A stretch of 64,000 nucleotides of DNA. Source: Parasitella parasitica NRRL 2501. Its lineage: Eukaryota > Fungi > Mucoromycota. A program made the position numbers and the translations under genes. Of this stretch, positions 1-57,700 are shown piece after piece (the stretch's first letter is position 1; each line of letters starts with the position of its first letter). The DNA lies in the NCBI GenBank assembly GCA_025201805.1, contig MU619376.1, positions 1 through 64,000 on the forward strand, written 5' to 3'. The notes below the pieces were generated by a model. That model was not told the origin of the DNA. It did no database searches and worked only from the letters and a program-made list of their open reading frames with translations.

Positions 1-250
1 GGAAGAGTTGTGGGTAACATTGATTGCTTGGCGTGAGTCTTGATTGGTGTTGGTTTCACTTGGTGTGGGATATCGAAACATGAGAAGCTTGGCATAAGTC
101 TTGATTGGTGTTTGTCTTGAACTGTGGAACATTACATGGTTTATGATTATGCAGTGCTTGAGTACGCATGAATCACATGTGATCTACACACTGACATAAT
201 CTCGATCTGCATGAATTCTTGATATACTTTGACAGGCGTAGTTCGTGACA
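1..250 (-). mobile_element. LTR-like repeat fragment (5' terminus TGTCACGAAC at 250, runs off window)
   Basis: Minus strand begins TGTCACGAAC...CCTGTC, similar to TGTCATGAACCTGTC at 1064. Internal direct repeat GTCTTGATTGGTGTT. No ORF. Confidence 0.45.
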
Positions 251-251
251 C

Positions 252-932
252 TTATAATGTGATGTCATACGCGGAATGGAAAGACAGCATGACAGTGGCC
301 TGTACAGAACACTCCTGCGCACGTTTACTGCAACAAAACCTGGTAGGTTCGTCGAAATATTGTTGGACGACGCGAGCGGTGCGGGTGGCAGCGTTCAATC
401 GGGAGCGTAATTTTTGTTCTTGTTCAACGAACCGTGCTGCATCTCTGCGAGTGCTTCGGGGAACACAAGAATGAACATGAAACCAACCGCGACTGACGTT
501 GGTTGAGAAGTTTCCGCCAACATCGATGATCGTTGCAGAGGTGGGAATACGGCGCATTATCAAATCCGTCCAGATGAGACGACTTGCGGCAGCTAAAGAG
601 TGATTCGCACCACGGGTACCGTACGTATGCTTAGCGTCAGAGAAGGCCTGACACAAAAGCTCTTGCTGTTGGGTAGTCAATCGGTAAGGTACGCGCACAT
701 CGAACTGGTAGTTGGATGCTTTCTTTTCGGAGAAAGGGGACTGTTGTTGGGCCAGAAGTACGGCATTCTTGACAAATGCTGAGATGGGTCCTTCGGGATC
801 CGAAATGAAGGCGGCGGTGTACTCGTCGGTAGATGCATTGGGGAGACCAAGTCTCTCCAACTCGGCCTGGACGAGAGGCCGGAGGTGTTGAGTGGCGACT
901 TTGTCGTCCTCTAGTTCCTGGGCAAAGGACAT
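252..932 (-). CDS. Endogenous viral element: N-terminal part of an alphavirus-like (tobamo/virga-like) replicase, viral methyltransferase/guanylyltransferase domain, 3'-truncated
   Basis: Motifs NHSLAAASR, IIDVGGNF, HVHSC..RDAAR and FHSAYDI parallel the tobamovirus p126 series HSLAGGLR, YDIGGNF, VHCC..RDIMR, LHSIYDI. Intronless and GC-richer than the flanks. The stop lies at the junction with the LTR-like repeat. Confidence 0.85.
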   Translation of the reverse strand: MSFAQELEDDKVATQHLRPLVQAELERLGLPNASTDEYTAAFISDPEGPISAFVKNAVLLAQQQSPFSEKKASNYQFDVRVPYRLTTQQQELLCQAFSDAKHTYGTRGANHSLAAASRLIWTDLIMRRIPTSATIIDVGGNFSTNVSRGWFHVHSCVPRSTRRDAARFVEQEQKLRSRLNAATRTARVVQQYFDEPTRFCCSKRAQECSVQATVMLSFHSAYDITL

Positions 933-1062
933 TGTTTAGATGTTTGTTGGTTTGTTATGAGATGGGTTGATTTTAATTGGAGTATATTTAGTGGAGTCTG
1001 ATGTGGAGTAATTCTGTGGAGTTCTATTTGGCGTCGGCTTAGGCTGTGGAAACCTAAGCAGT
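933..1062 (-). promoter_or_regulatory. Putative viral 5' UTR (A/C-rich, G-poor leader with terminal stem-loop)
   Basis: Viral sense reads GCTTAGG-TTTCCACAG-CCTAAGC (hairpin), four ACTCCA copies, then CATAACAAACCAACAAACATCTAAACA-ATG. Confidence 0.55.
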
Positions 1063-1063
1063 G

Positions 1064-1525
1064 TGTCATGAACCTGTCGAGCCTTCAAGCCCAAACAATT
1101 ATACATCTTGATCTAAAAATTATATCACCTCGTTATTCCTAATCAATCCACATTGCATTCTTGCCTCTCTGATTCACACTGTCATTCTTGCCTTACTCAT
1201 CCACATTATACTATTGACTTATTGATCCACGATATCCTATTTACCTAATTGATTCACGTTATAGTAAATAGTCCAGTTCACATTTCAGTGAACTAGACAG
1301 CTCGCAAAAAAGTATAAATAGAAGCCATTATGACAAGCAAAGAAGAGTTTTCTTCGTCAGATCTCCTCATCGAATTCCAATATTAAGTATCCCTAGCAAT
1401 CTTCTTATCTTTCTCCACCTTTCCCTTATTAAATTACAGCCTCCTCATTTGAAATAAACTTCTGCATATCTTCTCTTAGTACTCTGTCCCTGATTATCTA
1501 ATAAGGCCGTAGATCCCTGATAGGC
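1064..1525 (+). mobile_element. LTR-like repeat (3' end uncertain)
   Basis: Starts TGTCATG, has TATAAATA near 1313 and AATAAA near 1454. No TSD found. Confidence 0.45.
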
Positions 1526-1724
1526 TCTGTCAGATCAAAGACATGTAGCCCTTGCTGTATAACCTCATATCGTACCCTGTCAAGTAGATTGTCACTGTGA
1601 ATTAGTTTTGTCAATTAGTAATCTAAATAAGTCACCATAAATATATGTAGTTGTAAAAAGTATAAATAGCAGATGCAATTTCGATCTTAAATAAAGTATC
1701 TTAAAGTTTTCGTATCTCGTTAAC
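1526..1724 (+). repeat. Fragment of the LTR family also present at 5605-6240 and 6795-7008
   Basis: Shared blocks CTGTCAGATCAAAGA, ATATCGTACCCTGT, AAATAAGTCACCA, AAAAAGTATAAATAGCAGATGCAA and GTTTTCGTATCTCGTTA. Confidence 0.65.
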
Positions 1725-2312
1725 ATTTGGTTTTTATTATCTTTTTAACCCAACAAATACCCTGTATTTATATCATAATAAACGATATACTTCTTTTATT
1801 GTTCGGATACAGTTGAAAGCTGTGAATTATTACAAGTCTCTTTTTATTGTATTGAAATATCTGAAATATACATCAGTACCTAAAATTTTAATTATCTCAG
1901 TAACAAGCAAAAATTTATGATCCCAAAAACGCGATTCCCCAATTCCATCCTTCCGGAAATGCTAAAATGAATTTAAGAATGAGAGCATCTCAACAACGAA
2001 TCCGTCAAGGAAGACGAGATCATAGACCCAAGAATACCGCAAACACTTATTATGAGGGTACGCAACAAGAATTTCTAGCTTTTTATGATCGAAATTTTGG
2101 GTCAGAAGATCCCACAAGGCATACTGTTACTGGATCCAAGGTTGCGTTTTACATCGAAAAAGAGGTATTAACAAAACTATAAGCATTTGTTCAATGTCTA
2201 ATGGTTTTCTTTCACCACAGCTTTCTCAACGCAAGAAATTAAGACTTAAGCATGGCGAAGATCCCGATGCAACTCTCAGTGCAAATACAATTGAGATCCA
2301 TCTTGTAGCAAT

Positions 2313-4278
2313 CACTATGGCGTCCTGGATGTTCTCGGTGAACATAAATGTGCTCAAATGGGAACATTTTTAGGGTCATGGGAGCATTAATGTGCTTGCG
2401 AGACCATAAATAATTTTGGCCCAAATGTAAAAAAAGTTGAGATGGCTCATTTTTTAATTATATAATATAATTCCTGAGACATTTCAATTTTTTTTGTGCT
2501 TGTAGTAACATTTGCTACCAAATATTTGTTGAGATATTGCAAAGATCGCATCTGTTTTGAGTAAAAAAAGTTTATTTATGCTCGCACGATCATACTAATG
2601 TTCATTCGAGAGCAAAAAGTGACGAAGAAGTACCTACTGTTAACCAAAGTGTTGTTGAAGATGATAAAAAAAAAGCCGCTGGTAATAATAATGCTAGCAC
2701 CAGTAGCAATACACTTGAATAAAGTATATTTTTGTTTGCACATGCCTTGCTTTCAAATGTTGAGACGACCTTGTAGCTGTGCTTTTCTATTGGCTTTTTA
2801 CTGCATGCTTAGCGCAAACATTGCATATTGTGNNNNNNNNNNNNNNNNNNNNNNNNNNNNNNNNNNNNNNNNNNNNNNNNNNNNNNNNNNNNNNNNNNNN
2901 NNNNNNNNNNNNNNNNNNNNNNNNNNNNNNNNNNNNNNNNNNNNNNNNNNNNNNNNNNNNNNNNNNNNNNNNNNNNNNNNNNNNNNNNNNNNNNNNNNNN
3001 NNNNNNNNNNNNNNNNNNNNNNNNNNNNNNNNNNNNNNNNNNNNNNNNNNNNNNNNNNNNNNNNNNNNNNNNNNNNNNNNNNNNNNNNNNNNNNNNNNNN
3101 NNNNNNNNNNNNNNNNNNNNNNNNNNNNNNNNNNNNNNNNNNNNNNNNNNNNNNNNNNNNNNNNNNNNNNNNNNNNNNNNNNNNNNNNNNNNNNNNNNNN
3201 NNNNNNNNNNNNNNNNNNNNNNNNNNNNNNNNNNNNNNNNNNNNNNNNNNNNNNNNNNNNNNNNNNNNNNNNNNNNNNNNNNNNNNNNNNNNNNNNNNNN
3301 NNNNNNNNNNNNNNNNNNNNNNNNNNNNNNNNNNNNNNNNNNNNNNNNNNNNNNNNNNNNNNNNNNNNNNNNNNNNNNNNNNNNNNNNNNNNNNNNNNNN
3401 NNNNNNNNNNNNNNNNNNNNNNNNNNNNNNNNNNNNNNNNNNNNNNNNNNNNNNNNNNNNNNNNNNNNNNNNNNNNNNNNNNNNNNNNNNNNNNNNNNNN
3501 NNNNNNNNNNNNNNNNNNNNNNNNNNNNNNNNNNNNNNNNNNNNNNNNNNNNNNNNNNNNNNNNNNNNNNNNNNNNNNNNNNNNNNNNNNNNNNNNNNNN
3601 NNNNNNNNNNNNNNNNNNNNNNNNNNNNNNNNNNNNNNNNNNNNNNNNNNNNNNNNNNNNNNNNNNNNNNNNNNNNNNNNNNNNNNNNNNNNNNNNNNNN
3701 NNNNNNNNNNNNNNNNNNNNNNNNNNNNNNNNTGTAGGTGGTTATTTGTTATTGTCGCCAACAAAATTTATTTTACTGATGCATTTTTCTTGTATATAGC
3801 AAATACCTCAGCAGTTGCTTCAATTTCAAATCGGGTAATAGCTAACCTTGTACTGTTTTCCATAATTGCCTGTGTGAACCAAAGGCTACATAATCAAGAC
3901 AATATTGTATGTAACGATATGAAATGAAAGCAATAATAAATTACTGGTCCATACTACAAAAATTGACAAAACTTACAGCTACATTTTTATACGCAAATTT
4001 TACTTTTTTGAGTAATTATTTTGAGTGTACGGGCACATTTTCGCTTCATGAGCACATTTTTTCAAGCCTTTTGAGCGTAATTTTAAGCCTATGAAACTAG
4101 TAATTTATGTGCTCATCTAAGCATAAAAATGTGATCATTTAAGATGTTTCAATTTTTGCTCTCGCATGAGCACATTTATCGCCTTAACCTAGCTCGATAA
4201 GCACTTTTTTTGGCTCTAAAAACTGTTCCCGTTCATGCACATATATATTCTCATGAGAACATCGGCGAGGCCATAGTG
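2313..4278. mobile_element. CACTA (CMC/EnSpm) DNA transposon, apparently non-autonomous, spanning the N gap
   Basis: TIRs CACTATGGCGTCCTGGATGTTCTC and GAGAACATCGGCGAGGCCATAGTG, 3-bp TSD AAT on both sides, subterminal GTGCTC/GAGCAC repeats. Confidence 0.8.
2833..3732. other. Assembly gap (N run)
   Basis: Run of N. ORFs spanning it are artefacts. Confidence 0.99.
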
Positions 4279-4421
4279 AATTGTCGATCTTTGGAGAGAT
4301 CAACGAAACAAAGGCATAAATACTTTCCCTCATCCTGGAATTGAATATGAACAATTTATGAACACTCTCGCAAGAAAAGAGAACAAGAAGAGAGAAGAAT
4401 ATAAGACCGTCGTGCAGCAAT

Positions 4422-4847
4422 CGTGGATATAATATCCATACTTCATACATCGATCATCAGTTCATGCTATATTTGAATCATGAGTGTACTACTCAATAGA
4501 TATTATCAAATGTGTACATAGTCGGAAGAATAGAATAACCAACATATAAAGATAAGAAATGAATCTTAACAAATCACAATACATGCAAGTCAATGTATAA
4601 TATAGCCTGATATTTTGATCAAAGATCTTAATCCAATAGTGAGGCTACATGAATAGATAGAATATTCTTTGAAGATTGATAATGATTGAGATGTGATAGT
4701 GGAAACTATATAAAGAGGGCATCAATCTGTAATGATTAGAGTTCTCCAGTCTGAACTAAATAATAAATCTATACGTTATCTAGTTGACTTATCTTGTTTT
4801 TTTATACTTTTTTTCTGTGAATATCCTTACATCAAGCATATTCCACA
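4422..4847 (+). mobile_element. Solo LTR inserted in the Crypton ORF
   Basis: Termini (C)GTGGATAT...ATATTCCACA, 5-bp TSD GCAAT, internal TATATAAA and AATAAA. Confidence 0.75.
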
Positions 4848-5604
4848 GCAATAACTGTTGGTGATGGATACACGACGGTCGAGGAGTTGAAGGCTTGATT
4901 GATCACTACATCGCTCAAAATAGCGAAGAAAAGGCTTGCGTGATGCCTTAATTTGTTTACTCTCACATTACATGTATCTTCGTGGAGCTTCTGCTTGTCA
5001 AGCTGAATTAGCGGATCTTCAGTCGCTGAATTTTGCTGCTGAAGGGCCTACACCTTGCCCTGCCTTGCTGTTTCTAATGACTGATAGCAAATCAAACAAG
5101 CATGATGGAGCCATTCAGATATCTGGATGTATGCGAAGCAAGTTCACTGAGATTTGTCCGCTCATGATGCCCTCGTTCTATCGCTTCCAATGCCAGGGAG
5201 AGGCGTTCCCAAACACGACAACTTCCAGAGACTGGTTTGATATCAAGCTTTTCAAAGGGTCAGATCGCTTGGTGGAGATGTCTTCCAAAGCACATTTTGT
5301 TGCCATCAAGAAAGGACTCGGCGCTTGTAGAATTCAATCAAGCAAGGCCACCCATATTTTTCTAGGTGCAGGCGCACGAATGGCAGATGTGTGGGGTGTC
5401 GATGAAAGCGAAATCAGACGAAACGGCTAGTGGAACTCTACGTCTATTAACAGGTCTTACTTGACAGGTCTACCAAGAAGACTCATGCGGCAACTTGCTG
5501 GCTTCCCAAGAGAAGAAGGCCACTTTTATCTTCCCAGAGGCATGATAGATCCTCCAGAAGAACTAAAGCGCAAGCTTTTCTCTGATGTGGACCTATGGCA
5601 AGAT

Positions 5605-6240
5605 TGATCTGCCATAATGTAGGTTAGGAGATCATGATAGTGTACTTCAATTAAAGATTCGAGATGATTGTCCAATGATGTGTTGTTGTTCAGGTCGAAA
5701 CAGGCGAATAAAGTCTTTGTTTCAAATCAGGAAGGTTATCTGTAACACAGATCTGTATGATTGACAAACAATAAGGTACTGTCAGATCAAAGATCAATAA
5801 CCTTGTAGTGTTGAGATCAGCAAGATCGAAATAAGAAAAGTATAATATAAAACGTTGAATTAACGAGATACGAAAACTTGAGATTACTTTATTAAAGATT
5901 CAACTTTGCATCTGCTATTTATACTTTTTACAACAACATAAATTTTTGGTGACTTATTTAAAATACTAGTCGATAGTAATCGATAAGAATAATTTGCAAG
6001 CAACATCATATCCTTAACAGGGTACGATATATTATTATACTACAAGGTTATTGATCTTTGATCTGACAGTACCTTATTGTTTGTCAATCATACAGATCTG
6101 TGTTACAGATAACCTTCCTGATTTGAAACAAAGACTTTATTCTCCTGTTTCGACCAGTATAACAACACATCATTGGACAATCTTCAATCTTTAATTGAAG
6201 TACACTATCATGATCTCCTAACCTACATTATGGCAGATCA
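5605..6240. mobile_element. Two copies of one LTR family in inverted arrangement (partial + copy 5605-5809, full - copy 5809-6240)
   Basis: About 200-bp near-identical inverted arms starting TGATCTGCCATAATG. The minus copy runs TG...CTCAACA with TATAAATA and AATAAA. Confidence 0.75.
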
Positions 6241-6794
6241 TGTAGTATGCAGTAAATTTGAAAGATTTACGAAATAAAAAAAAAAAAAAGTAAAAATAAA
6301 AGCGATATGAAATTACAATTATAATCAAGTTTGGGGTTCTTTATTATAAAAGTATACTGAGGTTTTATCTAGAGAAAAACATCTTAGTATTTATAGGATT
6401 TGAATTGTTGTATATCAGTTCTCATGAATGAAGCATTGATCCTAGAGTCAAAGCGTTAATTTGTCGTTGTTTAATTTTAGGTTTTAAGGAGAAGCAAATT
6501 ATGCTGAATGCTTTCACCATTGATGGAGATTTGCGTAACATTGATTGGCCGTGTTAGGATGGCTATCGTCATACTTTAGTTATTCTGTTAAAGATATCCT
6601 TGTCTAGAATGATGGGAAAAACCCATTGAATGACGAGCTGCCATAATTGATAAGGTCTTAAATTGTATTTGTAATTCGATTTGATTTATATGACTTAATA
6701 TGTTATGCGAACTCGAATGGCACGAATTGACTATGCGTGACATTTGAGTCTTATTTTTTTAGATACTTGCTTTTAGTTATACCATTCCATTGCA

Positions 6795-7008
6795 TAGTAT
6801 AATAATATATCGTACCCTGTTAAGGATATGATGTTGCTTGCAAACTATTCTTATCGATTAGTATCGACTAGTATTTTAAATAAGTCACCAAAAATTTATG
6901 TTGTTTTAAAAAGTATAAATAGTAGATGCAAAGTTGAATCTTTAATAAAGTAATCTCAAGTTTTCGTATCTCGTTATTTCAACGTTTTATATTATACTTT
7001 TCTTATTA
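6795..7008 (+). repeat. 3' half of the same LTR family
   Basis: Near-exact reverse complement of about 5835-6040. Confidence 0.75.
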
Positions 7009-7964
7009 TATATTCTATAACGAATATGTACAACACACAACAGAGATATAACCAAAGTTACCAAAACTAATGGTTATGGGGATAAAGACTACTGTTTATT
7101 TGTTTAAATAAGATATAACTTATGTAATACTTGGAGATTGGGGGGGAAGCGTTCTGATCGTTTGATTAATATAGGGGTCAAAGAGACGACCTGGCTTGCG
7201 CCACCACACAACAGTATAGTAAGTAATAACCCTGATAGCAATGTTAACAATTAGATACATTACCCGTCCATTAACATAGTACATCATTCTACCCTTACTA
7301 CTAGATAATTGTATTTCATCACAGTGTTGTACGTGAGCATAAAGTCTTAATGATGTATATTTCAGATATTTCAATACAATAAAAAGAGACTTGTAATAAT
7401 TCACAGCTTTCAACTGTATCCGAACAATAAAAGAAGTATATCGTTTATTATGATATAAATACCCTGTATTTTTATCTTCAATTATTTACTACAACTGACA
7501 TGGTAGCTGTTGTAATAACCAATAGATTAATGTGATAGTATGTTGTCACTGTTGATGAACGAATAGAAAATACACCGTGTTATCATTGTCAATTGGTTTG
7601 ATATGTTTCATTGTTGAGATTGATCCAAGAATATGAGCTAATGTAACATATCAAATAGTTTGTTCGCACCTTGACATTTGAGAGCAAGTCCGCATATCTT
7701 GTTGATGTCATGGCAGCCGAGACATTGCGATATCCAGTGACCGTTGAGATATTATACTGGTTTGACATGAAAGAAATGGTGTTTGTAGCATATTTCTTTT
7801 TATTTTTGAAGCTCAGTAGGATATTGACAGTTGATGTTTATTTTCTTTGATGTTATTATGGTCGAATTGGTGGAAAGGGTTCAAAATATGGAATGAAAGG
7901 CTCTCAATTTGGATTTCATCTAATTAACAATAGCAATAACAACATATATATCTTACTTACAACA

Positions 7965-41934: not shown

Positions 41935-42951
41935 ATGACAGACATTAATTACAAAAGCGACCCACCACTTTACGACCTCCAAGATGTAATCCAACAGTAC
42001 CAATCACAACCAGAGTTGCTCAAACTGATTTTAACAAGCAAAGTAGAGGAAGACAAACGAAGAGCTGAGGAAGCAAAATTGCGTGCAAAGGAGCTCGATC
42101 TTTACTTTCAGCACAAGCGCAAGAAATCACACAAAATACTGCCTTCCATTTCACCCTCATTGAAAAAGGCTCGCTCTGCTTCATACGCTATCCCGCCTCA
42201 ACAAGCATCTGCCTTTGGCACTCCTTTCTCTGGTACTTCTGCTGGATCTGCATACCGCAGCCACCATTCCTCGATCTCATCCACGTCTTCCTTGTCCGGC
42301 TCAGTCTCATCATTGTCAGAACTTGAAAATGAGGACGAGGAAGAACAGGGTCATTTGGATCATCAACAACGTAGACACTCTGCTGCCGCTGCCATGCTGG
42401 CCATGGGAGGCGCTGCAATGAGCGACTCCAATATTGAAACCATCTCAAATGCCTATCCGTCGCCCATTGACGAGCATTTCAGTGATGGGAAAGAAGAAGA
42501 AGACGAAGACCTGAATAAGCCCCGTCGAAGACGGGAAATGCAACCCATCACTAAAATTGTGGAAACAAGAGAGTTTCCCTACGTTGACAATTATTTTTGG
42601 AAAAATAATGGCAATACTGTCCAAAAGAAAACAGGCTGCAAGAGCATCTATTACAAATGCTCTAATAGTAACAAGGTACGATCGCAACGGGATTTGGCGG
42701 GGGGGAGAGTTGGATTAACGGGTTTCCCCGTGATTCATTTTATTGGTCTTGATGGCATATGAAATTCATGCTTATTGGGTTTTCACACGACTGTTCATTG
42801 GATGCTTTGACTAATGTAAAGTCTTTATATGTAATAGGGGTGCTCTGTAAACAAAACTGTAACCGCTAGACCGAACGGTGAATATCTTATAAAATACAGA
42901 GGCTGCCATCTACAGGAATGCGGCAGAGTTGAAAGAATACGAGATTTATAA
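41935..42951 (+). CDS. Fungal WRKY-like transcription factor (WKNNGNT type)
   Basis: DNYFWKNNGNT..IYYKCSNSNK^GCSVNKTV...IKYRGCHLQEC, with intron about 42676-42837. Confidence 0.8.
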
Positions 42952-43445: not shown

Positions 43446-43790
43446 TGTTGGATACGGGTTTAGATGTAGCACATGGACACTATATGAGTTAAACTTTGTA
43501 TTCAACATTGTTATTAATATTAAAGTCATGATGTAATGAAGTACAGTTATCTCGTAGTAAAAGGGTAGAATGATGTACTGTATTAATGTCAAGTTGGCAT
43601 TTCTATATGCTAACATTGCTATCTGGGCCATTACTAACTGTATAATATACGTGGATACTATTGGACAAGTAGTAATTGACAGTAATGTATGGGGGTAAGT
43701 TTACGGTGATAAACTTCTTTATGATGATAGATGTTGATCAGACACTTCTGATCAATTGTGATTAGTAAAACTAACTATGCTTTTAATTAT
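43446..43790 (+). repeat. LTR-like repeat family (related minus copies about 46225-46445 and 7220-7330)
   Basis: Starts TGTTGG. Shared block AAGGGTAGAATGATGTACT..TTAATG..AACATTGCTATC. Confidence 0.6.
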
Positions 43791-43796
43791 TTACTA

Positions 43797-46221
43797 CTAG
43801 CTGACCTGCTCGCTTCGCTCACGACAGCCATCGTCGCCCTATCGAGAGTGCAATCTCTTGATAAATATTTAATGTTCTCTTATTACTTTCAACAGATCAA
43901 ATCTTTGCATGCACATTACTGACAGACTGGCAGGCTCATTGGCGCGTTATTTTCGATGGCATCCTGTTTCTCCCTCACTCAGTCCTACAGCGTACTGTCC
44001 GTTCCTTCTCCCGACCGGAAGATGAGCTACGGTCCGATCTTTAGATCTTTGGTCTTTTACATGTTATTTCCTTGACTCTCTTCATTTATACTATTTAATA
44101 CTATTTCCTTATATATACCCACATCAATCTTTTTATTCCCTCAATATGACAGTTTAAGGGCTTTAAATAAAGGAGGCAAAACTCCCCTATGAAAAAAAAA
44201 AAAAAAAAAAATAGTTCTTTTACTGTTGTTATATATGAAAGTCGGGCTGGCCAAACCTTCTTACGATGTTGATGGCGTTCTGTATAGCTGCTGCATATAA
44301 CGTGCTAATCTAATAAATGAACTTGGCAAAATTATTCTACTTCCAACTATACTCAAATCGGTGGATCCATCTTCCAATCTTATTGCATCCTCTAAACTGC
44401 TCAGTTAATGAGATCTTGGTAACTTTTGATTGTGTCTAAGAAACTGAAGATATTGTAGCTCAATCTTGGCGTATATATCCACTATTTAACCGCTGAAACA
44501 AATTGCCAATAAACGAAGATAACGATTGCCACCTCTAATCACTAATGTAAAAAAAAGCATAGTAGTTCATAGTAGTTACATTTTTGCTACTCAAAGAGAT
44601 GGTCTTAATATTCCAATATGCGGTGCCATTATGAAACATCAAGACATAGGCCATCGCGTCATACCATTGATTCAATTCACTTATTCTCTAAAGAGAACTT
44701 CCAGTTATAGGTCGAATTACAATTTCTATTGTTGTTTCTGGGTTATCGTCTCCAACAATGAGCACACCAATCTCGGTAGTTGGTGTGTTGTATCTCCTTT
44801 GATCTGGTGTACCTTCAGCTCTAAATACTGTAACATTGAAACATCAAGAACAAAGTTAGGGTCCTCTGCAATTAATCGAGCCATTGACTTGAAGTCATGA
44901 ACAAAACGATTTATGTCATGCATCAGTGCTTGAGGTTGGTCAAGGAGGTGATGTTAAAATGCTGGTTATGAGCGTGGCGGTTTCGAATCTCATTTCCTGA
45001 GTAGAGGATATAAATTTGAAGCAAATTTAGGTGCCTCGTCTACTCCTGGATGCAATGTTCTAATTCTATGATAAAGGCTGCCATGAATTCTAAATGAATG
45101 GCAACCTGCAGATGCATTGGTTATTGTCGAATTAAGGGTACAACCTAGTGAGGCGAACCTCAAAGCACTATTGTAAGCTCTTAGGTTTGACCTAAACTCC
45201 TTGCTTTTTCCGTCTGATCCTCTCAATAAATTGGCAACCAACTCAGGCAACTCAAGCAAAGGGTCAATAACATACTTACCTTGCCACAGCACAAAGAGAA
45301 ATCGGGATTTGTACTGGTGCCTCCATTCTTCTCTGAAGCCTACATGCATGCTTGACAATGGCGACAGATGCTATTCATTCCACCAAGATCATGGCGTTCG
45401 GTGACAGAGGGTGTATCTCTTCTGGCCATGTTGTGAGTATTGTTGTGCGTCGAGTTGGCGCACAATCTACTGGTAAATCGCAAATGACCTTCTTGTCCAA
45501 AGCTTGAACAAACACGACTGCTGGTTGTTGCATTATTAGCGCTGATTGTTTCTATTTGCTGATCTGATCTACTTCCATAGCTTTAGGTTGAGATCCTAGT
45601 TTATACAAAAAATTCGATTATGATTGTAAAATGAAAACATATTTGTGGCATACGATTAGCAATGTTGTTAGCGCAATCACAATAAAAAGATCGACGATAG
45701 CCTATACCACCACAACTTGCGCAAAGCCTGCTTGTAAAAAGTAAATGGCCTTTTTGACCACAGCTTGAGCAGATTCTGGTAGCAGGCATTTTGTGTTCGT
45801 AGTAATAAAATGTGCCAACATATTATTAAATAGAACAGAGTGTACAACTTAAAAAATCGCCTTTGCTGGTTAGACCATATCCAATTTCGAGAGATTTGTC
45901 CGACCTTCAACATTATTCATTCTGTTTAGAGAGATTTTATTTTAAATGAAAATACATGTCAACTTATTTGCGTTGTTTCATACGCACATGTTTTACTTCT
46001 AATTTTTGTGAAATGTTTACGTATTTTCAATTAGTTTCAGAAAATGACGTTGTGCCTGAACTGAGAAACCAACTAAAAGGAATTAGCTCCATTTCTTCTT
46101 TGTGTAAGTTTGTTTTATTGATAGAATAAACTGACTTGGAATTTGACAGTTTCTACGAAGCGTATATAAAAAAAATTAGCAGACTGGCAGACTCCCCTTT
46201 TTGAATTATTATTTTGATTGA
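43797..46221 (-). mobile_element. Helitron A, internally deleted (Rep/helicase N-terminal remnant)
   Basis: 3' end ...GAGCGAAGCGAGCAGGTCAGCTAG. ORF remnants YNSALRFASLG..SFRIHGSLYHRI..L.P (44990-45358), MHDINRFVHDFKSMA and N-terminal CxxC knuckles (45601-45789). The 5' TC near 46221 is tentative. Confidence 0.75.
43895..44211 (+). mobile_element. 5'-truncated non-LTR retrotransposon (LINE) tail with poly(A)
   Basis: Matches the LINE at about 57820-57900 (QIFACTLL..WQAHWR.IFD). A20 tail at 44192-44211. Confidence 0.7.
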
Positions 46222-46724
46222 TTGACAATTAGATTTACTATCACAATTCATCTGACACTTCTGATCAACATCAATCATCGTAAAAGAGTTTATCACCATA
46301 AGCTTACCTCCATACATTGCTATTTGTCCAGTAATATCCACGTATAGTACTTGGTAAGTAATGGCCCAGATAGCAATGTTAGTAATTAGAAATACCAACT
46401 TGACATTAACATAGTACATCATTCTACCCTTTTACTTTATCACTGTATAATATCTATCTTTTACGGACGTGAACAACCTCCCCTAAATAGGCTTTTATAC
46501 AAGAACTCTATTCTACCGCAACACTTATATAAAGGTAAGCAATTTAACATTTTTCCATCTTTGTCTACATCAACTGTAGACTCAATCCCATCGACCGGAG
46601 CAACCCCATTTCATCCTTTTTAAATAGTGTTATCAACGTTCAATTCAGTAGATCCTGACAGTGGCCATAAACAATCGAAGAATTAAAACCCCAAGATCGC
46701 GATCAATCTCAACCAAAACGCAAG

Positions 46725-47462
46725 ATGTCTTCTCCCCACGATGAGTTACCCCACGATGATTCAACTTCCAGTTTACTTTCCGGAGACTTTAATTCTAGTA
46801 CTCAGCATAGAATAAGCCCATCCAGCACTCACAGTGTAGCTCCGAGTGGAACCATGGAGACATACACTTCCAACGTGTCTCGTAGCATCGGTCACTTGGC
46901 TCATGGAGCCGACACCCCTGACGTTTCCGTTGAGAGTAACCTCTCGTCTCTGGATTTCCGCCTTGACAAGTCCCTCAACCAAATACCATCTGACTTAATT
47001 CGTAGTAACGTTATGTCCATCGAAGAGCGAAACGCGGTGTTACAAGCTCTCTTCGCGACTGTCCCTGGAACCCTTGATGACAGAGACAAGTCCGCCATCT
47101 TATTCTTCATCTGCTCTGTCGCCGTAATGAACGGTACTTCTGACATGGGCCTATACGGAGGGTCTACCATCTTACCTGGTGGCGGAGTATTTCACATGTG
47201 CGCTGTTCCCTCTTGCACGGATTACGCTATACGGCGTTTCTTCCGCTCATTGGCGGCAATTACGTACGAGATGCTCGAAAGCAACCACGAGTTGGCTTCT
47301 GCCGCTGCGGAGAAATGGGGTATGCCAAGCTCCCTTAAGTGCTTTGCATTTGACTATGCCGATGCTTTGACTGGTCTGCCCACCGAGACTCGTCGTCTGA
47401 TCCAGGAGTTCAAGCGCCGCCGCATCCTTGCTGCTAATGCTAGACGAAGAGTTCGTCGATAA
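46725..47462 (+). CDS. Endogenous viral element: filamentous +ssRNA virus-type coat protein (poty/flexi/clostero-like fold)
   Basis: Ordered motifs MNGTS, AIRRFFRSLA, KWG..., CFAFDYAD correspond to NGTS, (T)LRQ/RF.R.FA and AFDF of filamentous CPs. Disordered Ser-rich N-terminus, basic C-terminus, intact, intronless, GC-richer than flanks. Confidence 0.7.
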   Translation: MSSPHDELPHDDSTSSLLSGDFNSSTQHRISPSSTHSVAPSGTMETYTSNVSRSIGHLAHGADTPDVSVESNLSSLDFRLDKSLNQIPSDLIRSNVMSIEERNAVLQALFATVPGTLDDRDKSAILFFICSVAVMNGTSDMGLYGGSTILPGGGVFHMCAVPSCTDYAIRRFFRSLAAITYEMLESNHELASAAAEKWGMPSSLKCFAFDYADALTGLPTETRRLIQEFKRRRILAANARRRVRR

Positions 47463-47734
47463 GGTCATTCTTGGGATGATCGCCGTCCAAATGACGGGCG
47501 CACTGAACAATAGCGCATCAATTATGCTAAATCTTTCAACAGATCATTGCTTTTTTTTTTTTTTTTTTTTTTTTTTTTCTGAGACTAAATTAAATGTCCA
47601 AATGAAAGTAACCGATTAGGAAGACTTGTAAACATTCACTACCAGTGCACATAGTATGATATGTCATCATGTGACGAGTTATACCGACGACAAGGTGAGG
47701 TATGCTAAAGTATAGAGGTTGATCGAGCTTAGTA

Positions 47735-48218
47735 AGACGCACGAGAGACGTATTACGCTTGTCTGAACCTTGAACCCATGGACGGTGCCGACAAATTTAT
47801 GACCAAGGATGACCAACTCAGTTTATCCGCTTGCAGAGAAGGCATAAGCAATTGAACATTGGGATCTTTCAACAATTGCTTGAGTGATGCCTATCGTTTT
47901 ATGACAAGAGTCGACAATTTCAAACATGGGAAAGATACTGTCACCATTCTTTCGTTGGCAAACCTTAAACAGCATGCGGCAGATATTCTGAGGACATCTA
48001 CGGGAAACAAACATTTGATGTACGGGTTTGACGTGGGGCAAATCCACGTACCTCAATTGAAAAGGTTTCTTTCGGTCGATATATCTAATTTGCAAACTGT
48101 CACCGAACAACAAGACCTTCTTAGGTTTGCAGTACGCAATAAGAGATTGAACCGTTCCTGGATAAACAAGGTTCTATCCCGAGAACTCCGGATAACAATG
48201 CATGAGAAGGAGTGTTGA
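47735..48218 (+). pseudogene. Second Helitron B cargo, coding-like, unknown family
   Basis: Frame DARETYYACLNLEPM...ISN*TLGSFNNC...HEKEC with a single stop. Confidence 0.3.
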
Positions 48219-48591
48219 AAGTAATAAAAGAACATTAAATATTTATCAAGAGATTGTACTCCCGATAGGGCGACGATAGCTGTCGTGAGCGAAGCGAGCA
48301 GGTCAGCTAGTAGTAATAATTTAGATCAGAGTAAGAAATATTAGAATTAGGCAGATATTTTCACTACTGTCACAAGATCTGGTAAGAGTTGAACCTCTTT
48401 ATAATAACTGGATGTTTCATGTAAAGTGAGACATCTTGTAATGTGAATCATTACCCATGCCTGCCCATCAATAACAGTTGTCTGTCGTATTTCAAAATTT
48501 CACAAGAGATTGGTGTCTCAATGACGAAGATCATTCTTTTTAAAATCTGTAGATTTAGAGAACAGAATTTTCTATTGTTATTGTAAAAAAA

Positions 48592-55674: not shown

Positions 55675-57700
55675 CTGTCATTTTAGAGTTTCTGGAGAAT
55701 AAGTTGAGGTTTCTGAAAATAAGTTTCAAGGTTTTTGATCATTTGTCCGGCGTTTCTGAAAAAAGCTGAGGGAGTTGATGATACAAGCTGAGAAGTTTCT
55801 GAGAGGAGAGAAATGCGTCCTGAAATAAAAAAAAAAAAAAGGAGAGTTTATAGGTAAAATCTCTGTTTATTCATGCTGGAAAAAAAAAAGAAAGATATCT
55901 ACATCATATCGGTGAGATTGAGGCAATCTTGAAAAAAAAGAGACAGAATGCCTAATCCAACCACGGCAATCACTCATAGTTACAGTTTTGCCTGCTTCCT
56001 TGATTCTGGGTGTCAATGTATCATTTGTATCTAATGCTGATCTTTTGACATGGTATTTGACTTTGGACCAAAATTCTTCAATGGGATTCAAAAATGGAGA
56101 GTATGGAGGCAGATAAACACATTTATGGCCTTTAGATTCATTAAGTTTTCGTATGCATCCATTTTTATGAATAGGTGCGTTGTTCATAACGATGTATTGT
56201 CCTGGTAGATTGTTCTTGTCCAGTACATTTAGAACATTTTCGAGATAGTTCATGAAATGCTCGGTTCTTGTTCCTAATTTCGCTGTGACTCTGACAGTTT
56301 TACCATCGGCAGACCTCTTCTTGGAAGCAGATCCAAGCACCTCAGGCAACCTCAAAGAAATGTCGATGATACCCGCTGAAGAGATGGCACCAAGAATAGT
56401 GATGTTCCTACCCTTTGATTTAGGCACCAAAACCTTGCAAGGCTTTCCTTTTCTTGACCAAACTCTTGTTCTGCTGATGTAAAGATTGAATCCAGCTTCA
56501 TCCAAAAAAAACACAGTTATTTTCAAAATCCATATCTTTGTCAGCCAGCCATCCTAATACAGCTTCTCTTCTTTTCTGCTTTGTTTCATCTGAATTTCTG
56601 TACTCAGATATTTGTTGAACTTTCTTGATTGATAGCGCGCAATTATCTCTGATAAAATGATAGAATGCTGTTCTGGAAATGACTACGTCTGGAAATTTCG
56701 GCATTAAAATTTCACGCATGTATTCGAGAGTGTACGTGCCACGATGGTCGATTAGTTCTCGAATAAAAAAATCCTGTGCTTTTCCTAAGATCTGAGCTTT
56801 TGGTGGCCCCCCTTGGTTTCCAGATATCAGGGACTTCTTGATGTTCAGTATAATACTGAGCATACGGTAGGCAGTCTGCAGGATGATACTAGTTTTATTT
56901 GCTGCTGCTTTGATGGGCCATCCTTCTTGCGTTAAGCCGCAAATTCAACTACTTGTTCTCTGGTATATTTTCTGCAAGTCTTCCTCGTTTTGTTTTGTCT
57001 TAACGATTGCTTATATCTCTGAGATTTATTTTGCTCTGCTTCAGAGTCGTCTTCATCATGATCTGATCCTTGAAGGTCTTCTACCAGAGATTGATCCATC
57101 TCTATATATTCTTCATCATCTTCATTTTCATATTGATTCTCTGTACGATCACCGTGAAAAAAAATAGGATCTTCCTCAAGTGATTATGGACCGCAGATTG
57201 AACTACGTCCAAATCAGAGAAGGCCTCCAGCAGTTCCTCGTGGGCAACCTTCATCTTGCCTTCCTCATCATTCTCAAAGAAAGCCGAAAGAAACATGGTA
57301 TGAGCCGGCAGCATTTTTGGGGGGGGGGATGAAAATTGGAACAGCCCTAGTGGTCGTTTTAGGGCGTTCTAGCTGCTGCTGTCGTTGTTGCTCTTTGGCT
57401 CTCTTCTTGCTTTCTTGATGGGCCGCCTGCTTTGTCAAGATTATCTCTGTTCTTCTCTCAATGGCTTGTTCCATGAAAGAAGGGTACTCCACAACAACCT
57501 CCTTCTCCTTTATTTTTTTTGTTGACTTTGCTTATATATCCACAGCCTGTGGGGTACTTGATGTTCATCTTGGCAGAGGCGTGTTTCATGGACAAGCCTT
57601 CGACAAAATACCAGGCGGCCCTACTTGATTTTGATTTTATTGTAAAGGCGCAAACAGCAGGATGACTATCATGCAGTATCAGTACCACAAACCCAGCACA
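55675..57700 (-). mobile_element. Degenerate Tc1/mariner-IS630 (DDE_3) transposon
   Basis: VFF/LDEAGFN, IVMNNAPIHK (catalytic D to N), YLPPYSPFLNPIEEFWSKVK, frameshift near 56510, subterminal TTTCTG..AATAAG repeats at 55690-55830. Confidence 0.8.

Follow-up and report, generated by a model that had tools for sequence, protein, structure and literature searches.

This locus raises the question of how part of an RNA-virus capping gene came to stand in genomic DNA, from which kind of virus it was derived, and whether it still serves a function. In the 64-kb stretch of DNA analysed here (the window), an open reading frame, referred to as the capping ORF, ran on the minus strand from an ATG at 932 to a TAA at 254-252, comprising 226 codons with neither an intron nor an internal stop. 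A stop-free frame of this length was obtained in 4 of 2000 shuffles of positions 201-1000. The motifs HSLA, DVGGN, DAAR, and HSAYD were located at residues 111, 137, 164, and 219, respectively, which was consistent with the initial annotation of an uninterrupted, intronless ORF carrying four capping motifs. The comparison with Pfam PF01660 (Vmethyltransf) that the same annotation had proposed gave a match well above the curated cut-off (E 1.5e-16, 60.8 bits versus 27), in which residues 81-226 of the protein were aligned with profile positions 1-135 of 310.

The structural comparison pointed in the same direction. A search of the PDB with the single sequence returned 0 matches; a profile built from 23 relatives was aligned with residues 16-154 of chikungunya nsP1 (E 1.2e-9). 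When the capping ORF was modelled by AlphaFold2 with the 23-row alignment (pLDDT 83.5), the top fold matches in the PDB were again chikungunya nsP1 (E 1.2e-5). The fold matches in BFVD were viral replicases throughout, the first being Sisal-associated Virgavirus C, which we take to be linked to the viviviruses. The capping ORF and nsP1 thus share one fold over about 150 aligned columns, including the His, Asp, and Asp-x-x-Arg positions; however, nsP1 has approximately 470-535 residues, so that the capping ORF represents less than half of a capping domain. Each named match was either an RNA virus or an isolated fragment in the genome of a eukaryote, and there were no cellular genes among them. 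Its base composition (GC 0.52, GC3 0.54, and CpG o/e 1.14) lay outside the ranges of eight host ORFs (0.45-0.49, 0.41-0.49, and 0.57-0.92, respectively). To our knowledge, the Martellivirales have no DNA stage. The capping ORF is a fragment of an alphavirus-superfamily capping domain and a non-retroviral endogenous viral element. The coordinates of the features are given in Table 1.

Table 1 Location of the viral and host features in the window.
Feature	Position	Strand	Description
Capping ORF, virus-derived	252..932	minus	226 aa and stop; N-terminal extension (~1-80) and start of the capping domain (81-226); truncated
G-free, CA-rich leader, 65 nt	933..997	minus	Possibly viral 5′ UTR
Multi-copy host repeat adjoining the ORF end	1..250		TG/CA terminus at 250; putative, LTR-like
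Host repeat cluster	990..2830		Includes one arm of the 124-nt inverted repeat
124-nt inverted repeat arms (97% alike)	1755-1878 and 7348-7471		Enclose an N gap and the NDC10_II ORF 4924-5427
Candidate filamentous-type coat-protein ORF	46725..47462	plus	Intact, intronless, 245 aa, 26.8 kDa; putative
Poly(A) tract (T28 on the plus strand)	47551..47578	minus	11 nt past the last stop of the helicase remnant; likely a copied viral tail
Remnant of a viral superfamily-1 helicase, C-terminal half	47590..48212	minus	Two in-frame stops and one frameshift

Integration into a chromosome had been claimed, and contigs of a DNA run bore this out across the left junction. For positions 1-1700, 15 runs were listed, and three DNA runs among them were examined by contigs and depth. 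Part of the region was present in 7 of the 15; three runs, from two samples and two studies, contained 0.59-0.67 of its words. The other eight had next to no words of it, which is not proof of absence. There was no RNA run among those listed as containing the region, a result without bearing on expression. In run X3, whose sample and study differ from those of the best-matching run, a single contig of 674 nt corresponded to 215-888 with 0 differences at a depth of 29.6, compared with 25-33 for the other single contigs of this run. Since this contig crossed the left junction without a change, extending 36 letters onto the repeat side of 250, the capping ORF is genomic. None of the contigs examined spanned the right junction (889-1002). 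Runs X4 and X6 showed no cover over 286-950; their repeat contigs were of the same length as those of X3, and no contig joined across. This lack of cover was read neither as an empty site nor as absence, and no empty-site joint was found among the examined runs.

Subsequently, the relatives of the capping ORF were collected. An exhaustive protein search yielded 161 proteins at E<=0.001, the best 150 of which were taken further. The 90% cluster of the capping ORF included the Parasitella parasitica protein KAI8636770.1 (93% identical, 265 aa), which is already annotated in NCBI. Among the matches listed, the top two after the capping ORF itself were KAI8637120.1 (P. parasitica, 371 aa) and KAG0175871.1 (Apophysomyces sp. 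BC1021, 228 aa), with identities of 37% and 35%, respectively. All three are, like the capping ORF, truncated Vmethyltransf proteins on genomic contigs, whereas their end points differ from it and from each other; no description of them as endogenous viral elements was found in the literature. These named relatives suggest that the host belongs to the order Mucorales; five ORFs of the window that were compared with an exact-match collection to place the host genus had no entry there. Word-indexed protein searches returned the protein itself only, and no relatives were found in the viral_contigs and metagenome_contigs DNA collections. KAG0175871.1 (P0004) ends two residues past the end of the capping ORF despite their 35% identity, which may be chance or a recurrent break point. 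Another protein, CAH0387562.1 (P0006), has 426 aa with Vmethyltransf as its only domain and is encoded on a 64-Mb contig of Bemisia tabaci; it likely represents an endogenous viral element of the insect, from a different lineage.

A rapid tree was first computed from 150 rows (the repeat-rich P0014 was dropped and P0002 added), and a careful tree of 50 rows chosen from these followed. In the latter, a split with support of 91/97, below star level, joined the four Mucorales genome proteins with the group of RmVV1 RNA1 (P0061) and with capping-helicase proteins lacking an RdRp. The four Mucorales copies formed a single group in 26% of the bootstrap trees only. Rows with ToMV_Hel_N or Vmethyltransf_C domains grouped separately from the capping ORF (94/87), and a tree in which the capping ORF was forced together with five Virgaviridae-like rows was rejected by the AU test (p-AU 0.0158), this group having been chosen after the tree was seen and labelled by Pfam content, not by name. 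Informative names were available for 6 of the 15 relatives looked up, and "vivivirus-like" is our reading for the unnamed rows. Judged from these sequence comparisons, the best label is likely that of a virga-like mycovirus in the neighbourhood of RmVV1 and the viviviruses. The proposed origin from a virga-like virus of early-diverging fungi is therefore likely, whereas the label "tobamo-like", which had been given to the same source, is not supported, because both the tree and the AU test point away from the Virgaviridae-like rows. No RdRP-like or linker-like match was found in the 64-kb window.

RmVV1 has seven poly(A) segments, of which RNA1 carries a capping domain and a helicase (PMC11351042, consulted in part). 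It shares with the capping ORF the capping domain, the N-terminal extension, the same side of the 91/97 split, and a Mucorales host, whereas the identity between the two capping proteins is only 23%. Endogenisation of RmVV1-like viruses in Mucorales has already been proposed in print, for hypothetical proteins resembling RdRP that are encoded in the genomes of R. arrhizus; according to the same passages, the genomic matches concern RNA2, 3, 6, and 7, not the capping domain of RNA1 (PMC11351042). Neither Parasitella nor Apophysomyces was found in the text passages or by a term search of the supplement of that report. Aspergillus flavus vivivirus 1 and the other viviviruses, for which a family Viviviridae has been proposed, are segmented fungal Martellivirales with a 29-kDa coat protein of the poty/clostero type; the passages of that source mention neither Mucorales nor endogenisation (PMC12169780).

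Myers et al. reported endogenous RdRP genes in Mucoromycota genomes in 2020 (PMC7482067, in excerpt). Both those genes and the capping ORF are non-retroviral RNA-virus sequences in Mucoromycota genomes; however, those genes are older, indeed ancient, expressed, conserved, and derived from another virus group, whereas the capping ORF is young, truncated, and likely decaying. Parasitella is described as a fusion parasite that passes nuclei and genes to its hosts (PMC4241652, in part). The portions of PMC10079182 and of a bioRxiv study (10.1101/2021.12.02.471044) that were consulted contain nothing on these elements, and the latter study excluded viral sequences. In our literature search, the scope of which was papers outside subscription, this capping-domain element was not described in any of the papers found.

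The capping ORF is flanked by multi-copy host repeats on both sides. On the minus strand, the left repeat starts with TGTCAC at 250, one base past the ORF stop, and contains an internal 29-nt direct repeat. The summed depth of the three DNA runs was 307-789 over 1-285 versus approximately 30 on the capping ORF. No second copy of this repeat occurred within the 64-kb window. The earlier observation that the ORF stops where an LTR-like repeat begins holds to within one base, whereas the identity of the repeat as an LTR is plausible only, being suggested by one TG/CA end and the high depth, with the far end outside the window. The stop at 254-252 is aligned with a Glu in KAI8636770.1, which reads on, so that this stop may have arisen by a point lesion instead of being supplied by the repeat. 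In none of the frames of the window was a continuation of the protein found to the left of it.

On the ATG side, the cover by host repeats begins at about 988-1003. Among the G-free runs of the window that lack a long homopolymer, the intervening leader ranks third in length, after two of 72 and 73 nt, and is therefore only suggestive; it presumably resembles the omega leader of tobamoviruses. Because the N-terminal helices are alignable with the RmVV1 group, Met1 is probably the viral start; the leader and these helices together suggest a nearly complete viral 5′ end. The host repeat contains, at 1021-1044 and some 90 nt ahead of the ATG, a stable hairpin with a 9-bp stem, and no Rfam families were found in positions 1-2800. 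Further along, the NDC10_II-domain ORF is presumably Crypton-like, and the stretch 1755-7471 that encloses it is probably a DNA transposon.

We compared the capping ORF with its relatives at individual sites. It differed from KAI8636770.1 at 15 positions, each by a one-base step, and lacked six residues that are present in that copy. Ser98 is Pro, His102 is hydrophobic, and Phe218 is V, I, or L in 13 of 13 other rows (the Parasitella copy and 12 relatives), and the Parasitella copy has in turn an odd residue, Gln219, at a conserved column. In simulations of random change, the frame was still open after 8-15 replacements in 44-65% of cases. An open frame is thus expected about half the time without selection and shows no function. 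Judged at the sequence level, the capping ORF and the Parasitella copy look like young pseudogenes, and the capping ORF is likely decaying rather than working. Against decay, the four catalytic-type motifs are intact, and KAG0175871.1 ends two residues later, which could hint at a kept fragment. The initial annotation regarded the insertion as recent; the copy is indeed young, and it is already altered at sites that are conserved in relatives. A role as a source of siRNAs or as a dominant-negative replicase, which was also put forward, is possible but finds no support in the altered conserved sites or in an open frame that needs no selection.

A second viral locus, which is new beyond the first reading, was found at 46.7-48.2 kb, 46 kb from the capping ORF. 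In a tblastn search of viral proteins against the window, 21 matches fell at 47.6-48.2 kb, the best being the tobamovirus-like row P0058. PF01443 matched 47826-48170 (E 3.1e-5, 24.4 bits versus a cut-off of 21), and our own profiles matched the helicase remnant with E values down to 1.4e-10. The alignment reaches the C-terminus of the capping-helicase proteins and is followed by 11 nt and then by the 28-nt poly(A) tract, an arrangement that would fit a polyadenylated RmVV1-like RNA1, in which the helicase closes the protein, if both loci came from the same virus. The window contains 6 T-runs of at least 15 nt and 12 long A/T runs, and the chance that one of these T-runs lies within 30 nt of a fixed point is about 0.3%. 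On its 5′ side, the remnant is cut by a repeat at 48213-48335. We also considered whether the remnant could be the missing 3′ part of the capping ORF copy; this was rejected, because on the minus strand the remnant is located upstream of that copy, its GC content is 0.42 versus 0.52, and its decay is far more advanced. It is best read as a separate event.

Tail-to-tail with the helicase remnant and adjoining it lies the 245-aa ORF, the composition of which is like that of the capping ORF. Its best match among 177,635 PDB sequences was the coat protein 4dox_A, which we take to be that of papaya mosaic virus, at a non-significant E of 0.45-0.49. No Pfam family, no Atlas match, and no relative in viral_contigs or metagenome_contigs was found for it, and its single-sequence model, with a pLDDT of 40, was unusable. 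The candidate is similar in size to the 29-kDa coat protein of viviviruses, whereas its own coat-protein match is non-significant. For RmVV1, the passages of PMC11351042 name no coat protein, whereas the second locus holds a candidate one. Hairpins were predicted in the 88 nt after its stop. An inverted pair of 124-nt repeats (92%; 43771-43894 and 48213-48335) encloses the second locus together with a stretch that appeared by eye to be a decayed retroelement, and a second inverted pair lies at 43556-43774 and 46229-46436.

Taken together, these findings make it probable, though not beyond reasonable doubt, that the capping ORF derives from the 5′ end of a capping/helicase gene, copied into DNA from a plus-strand RNA virus that was likely a segmented RmVV1/vivivirus-like mycovirus; the copying was likely done by a host retrotransposon, and the copy is likely a decaying pseudogene. 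The fragment stands in genomic DNA between transposon-derived repeats. Its source would have been RNA1 of a polyadenylated martellivirus infecting Mucoromycota. Polyadenylated viral RNAs may have served as templates for the reverse transcriptase of a host retroelement, with the tail as the priming site at least in the case of the helicase piece. Such copying is suggested, albeit for a separate event, by the poly(A) tail of the helicase remnant, and a poly(A) as a mark of insertion was seen at the second locus only. A retroelement is likewise the likely maker of the capping ORF copy. Since the start codon and the leader survive, either the left repeat would later have cut a full-length copy, or an LTR element would have captured the 5′ end by template switching. 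The product, if made, would lack more than half of the domain, could not cap RNA, and would evolve without visible constraint.

Other explanations must be weighed against this one. The segment might be an assembly chimera or a contaminant that does not belong to the chromosome, as the high-copy repeats on both flanks, the N gaps in the contig, and the unbridged right junction in the contigs examined would allow. However, an RNA virus is not expected in DNA contigs at single-copy depth, the X3 contig is identical and crosses the left junction, the words of 1-1700 recur in three runs from two studies, and related copies are present in other assemblies; we therefore consider this explanation extremely improbable. 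An origin from a true member of the Virgaviridae, i.e. a tobamovirus-like virus, possibly of plants, would account for the motifs common to both, for the G-free leader, which is reminiscent of the tobamovirus omega leader, and for the row P0058 as the best match of the helicase remnant. The separate grouping of the ToMV_Hel_N/Vmethyltransf_C rows and the rejected joint grouping argue against it, as does the fact that the nearest relatives, among the matches listed, are in Mucorales genomes, and it appears very unlikely.

Somewhat less improbable, yet still unlikely, is that the capping ORF has been kept as an antiviral memory, either through repeat-driven transcription that feeds small RNAs into RNAi or through a truncated protein with a poisoning effect on the capping rings of viruses. 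The frame is open with an authentic start and leader, and the ORF sits among transposon repeats. In addition, nsP1-type enzymes are oligomeric according to PDB titles, which makes poisoning conceivable, the end of the Apophysomyces copy is almost at the same residue, and a function at the RNA level would not require a conserved protein. On the other hand, the changes at conserved sites are non-conservative, the open frame can be explained without selection, and the two copies from Parasitella, of 265 and 371 aa, have other end points. A question that is compatible with the preferred reading of a decaying viral copy, and that alters only the count of events, is whether the window and Parasitella copies represent one integration, duplicated or allelic in one species, in which case the window may itself be from Parasitella or a close relative. 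The 93% identity with single-base differences and the lesions on both copies (Gln219 in the Parasitella one) make this a serious possibility, to which we assign somewhat less than an even chance. Against it, X3 shows a single copy of flat depth over 286-855 (at a likeness setting of 85%) in one unbroken contig, so that no second close copy was seen there.

A wider reading can be put forward as a speculation of low probability. The contig would archive the 5′ end of RNA1, the polyadenylated 3′ end of RNA1, and an intact coat-protein gene of an undescribed family of segmented Mucoromycota viruses, and would thereby supply the RmVV1 lineage with its first coat protein; should the host be other than Parasitella, the nearly identical copy in that mycoparasite would record the passage of the virus or of its DNA copy between parasite and host by hyphal fusion. 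The phenomenon itself is known, and the gain is incremental. A lineage of Mucorales RNA viruses that has hardly been sampled gains a capping-gene fossil and probably helicase and coat-protein fossils as well. The poly(A) tail retained at the helicase remnant is a pointer to the route by which RNA entered fungal DNA. Furthermore, this young copy is matched almost identically by one in a fusion mycoparasite and would provide a test case for the movement of viruses between moulds and for whether RNAi is fed by such elements.

Two other features were observed in the window. A broken DDE_3 transposase, presumably of the Tc1/mariner type, lies at 55867-56863. A WRKY-like gene at 41935-42759 carries the motif WKNNGNT and is of the Mucoromycota type, which points to a host of this phylum; Mucoromycota was the commonest phylum in its Atlas clusters, which have 54 and 76 members with the phylum known.
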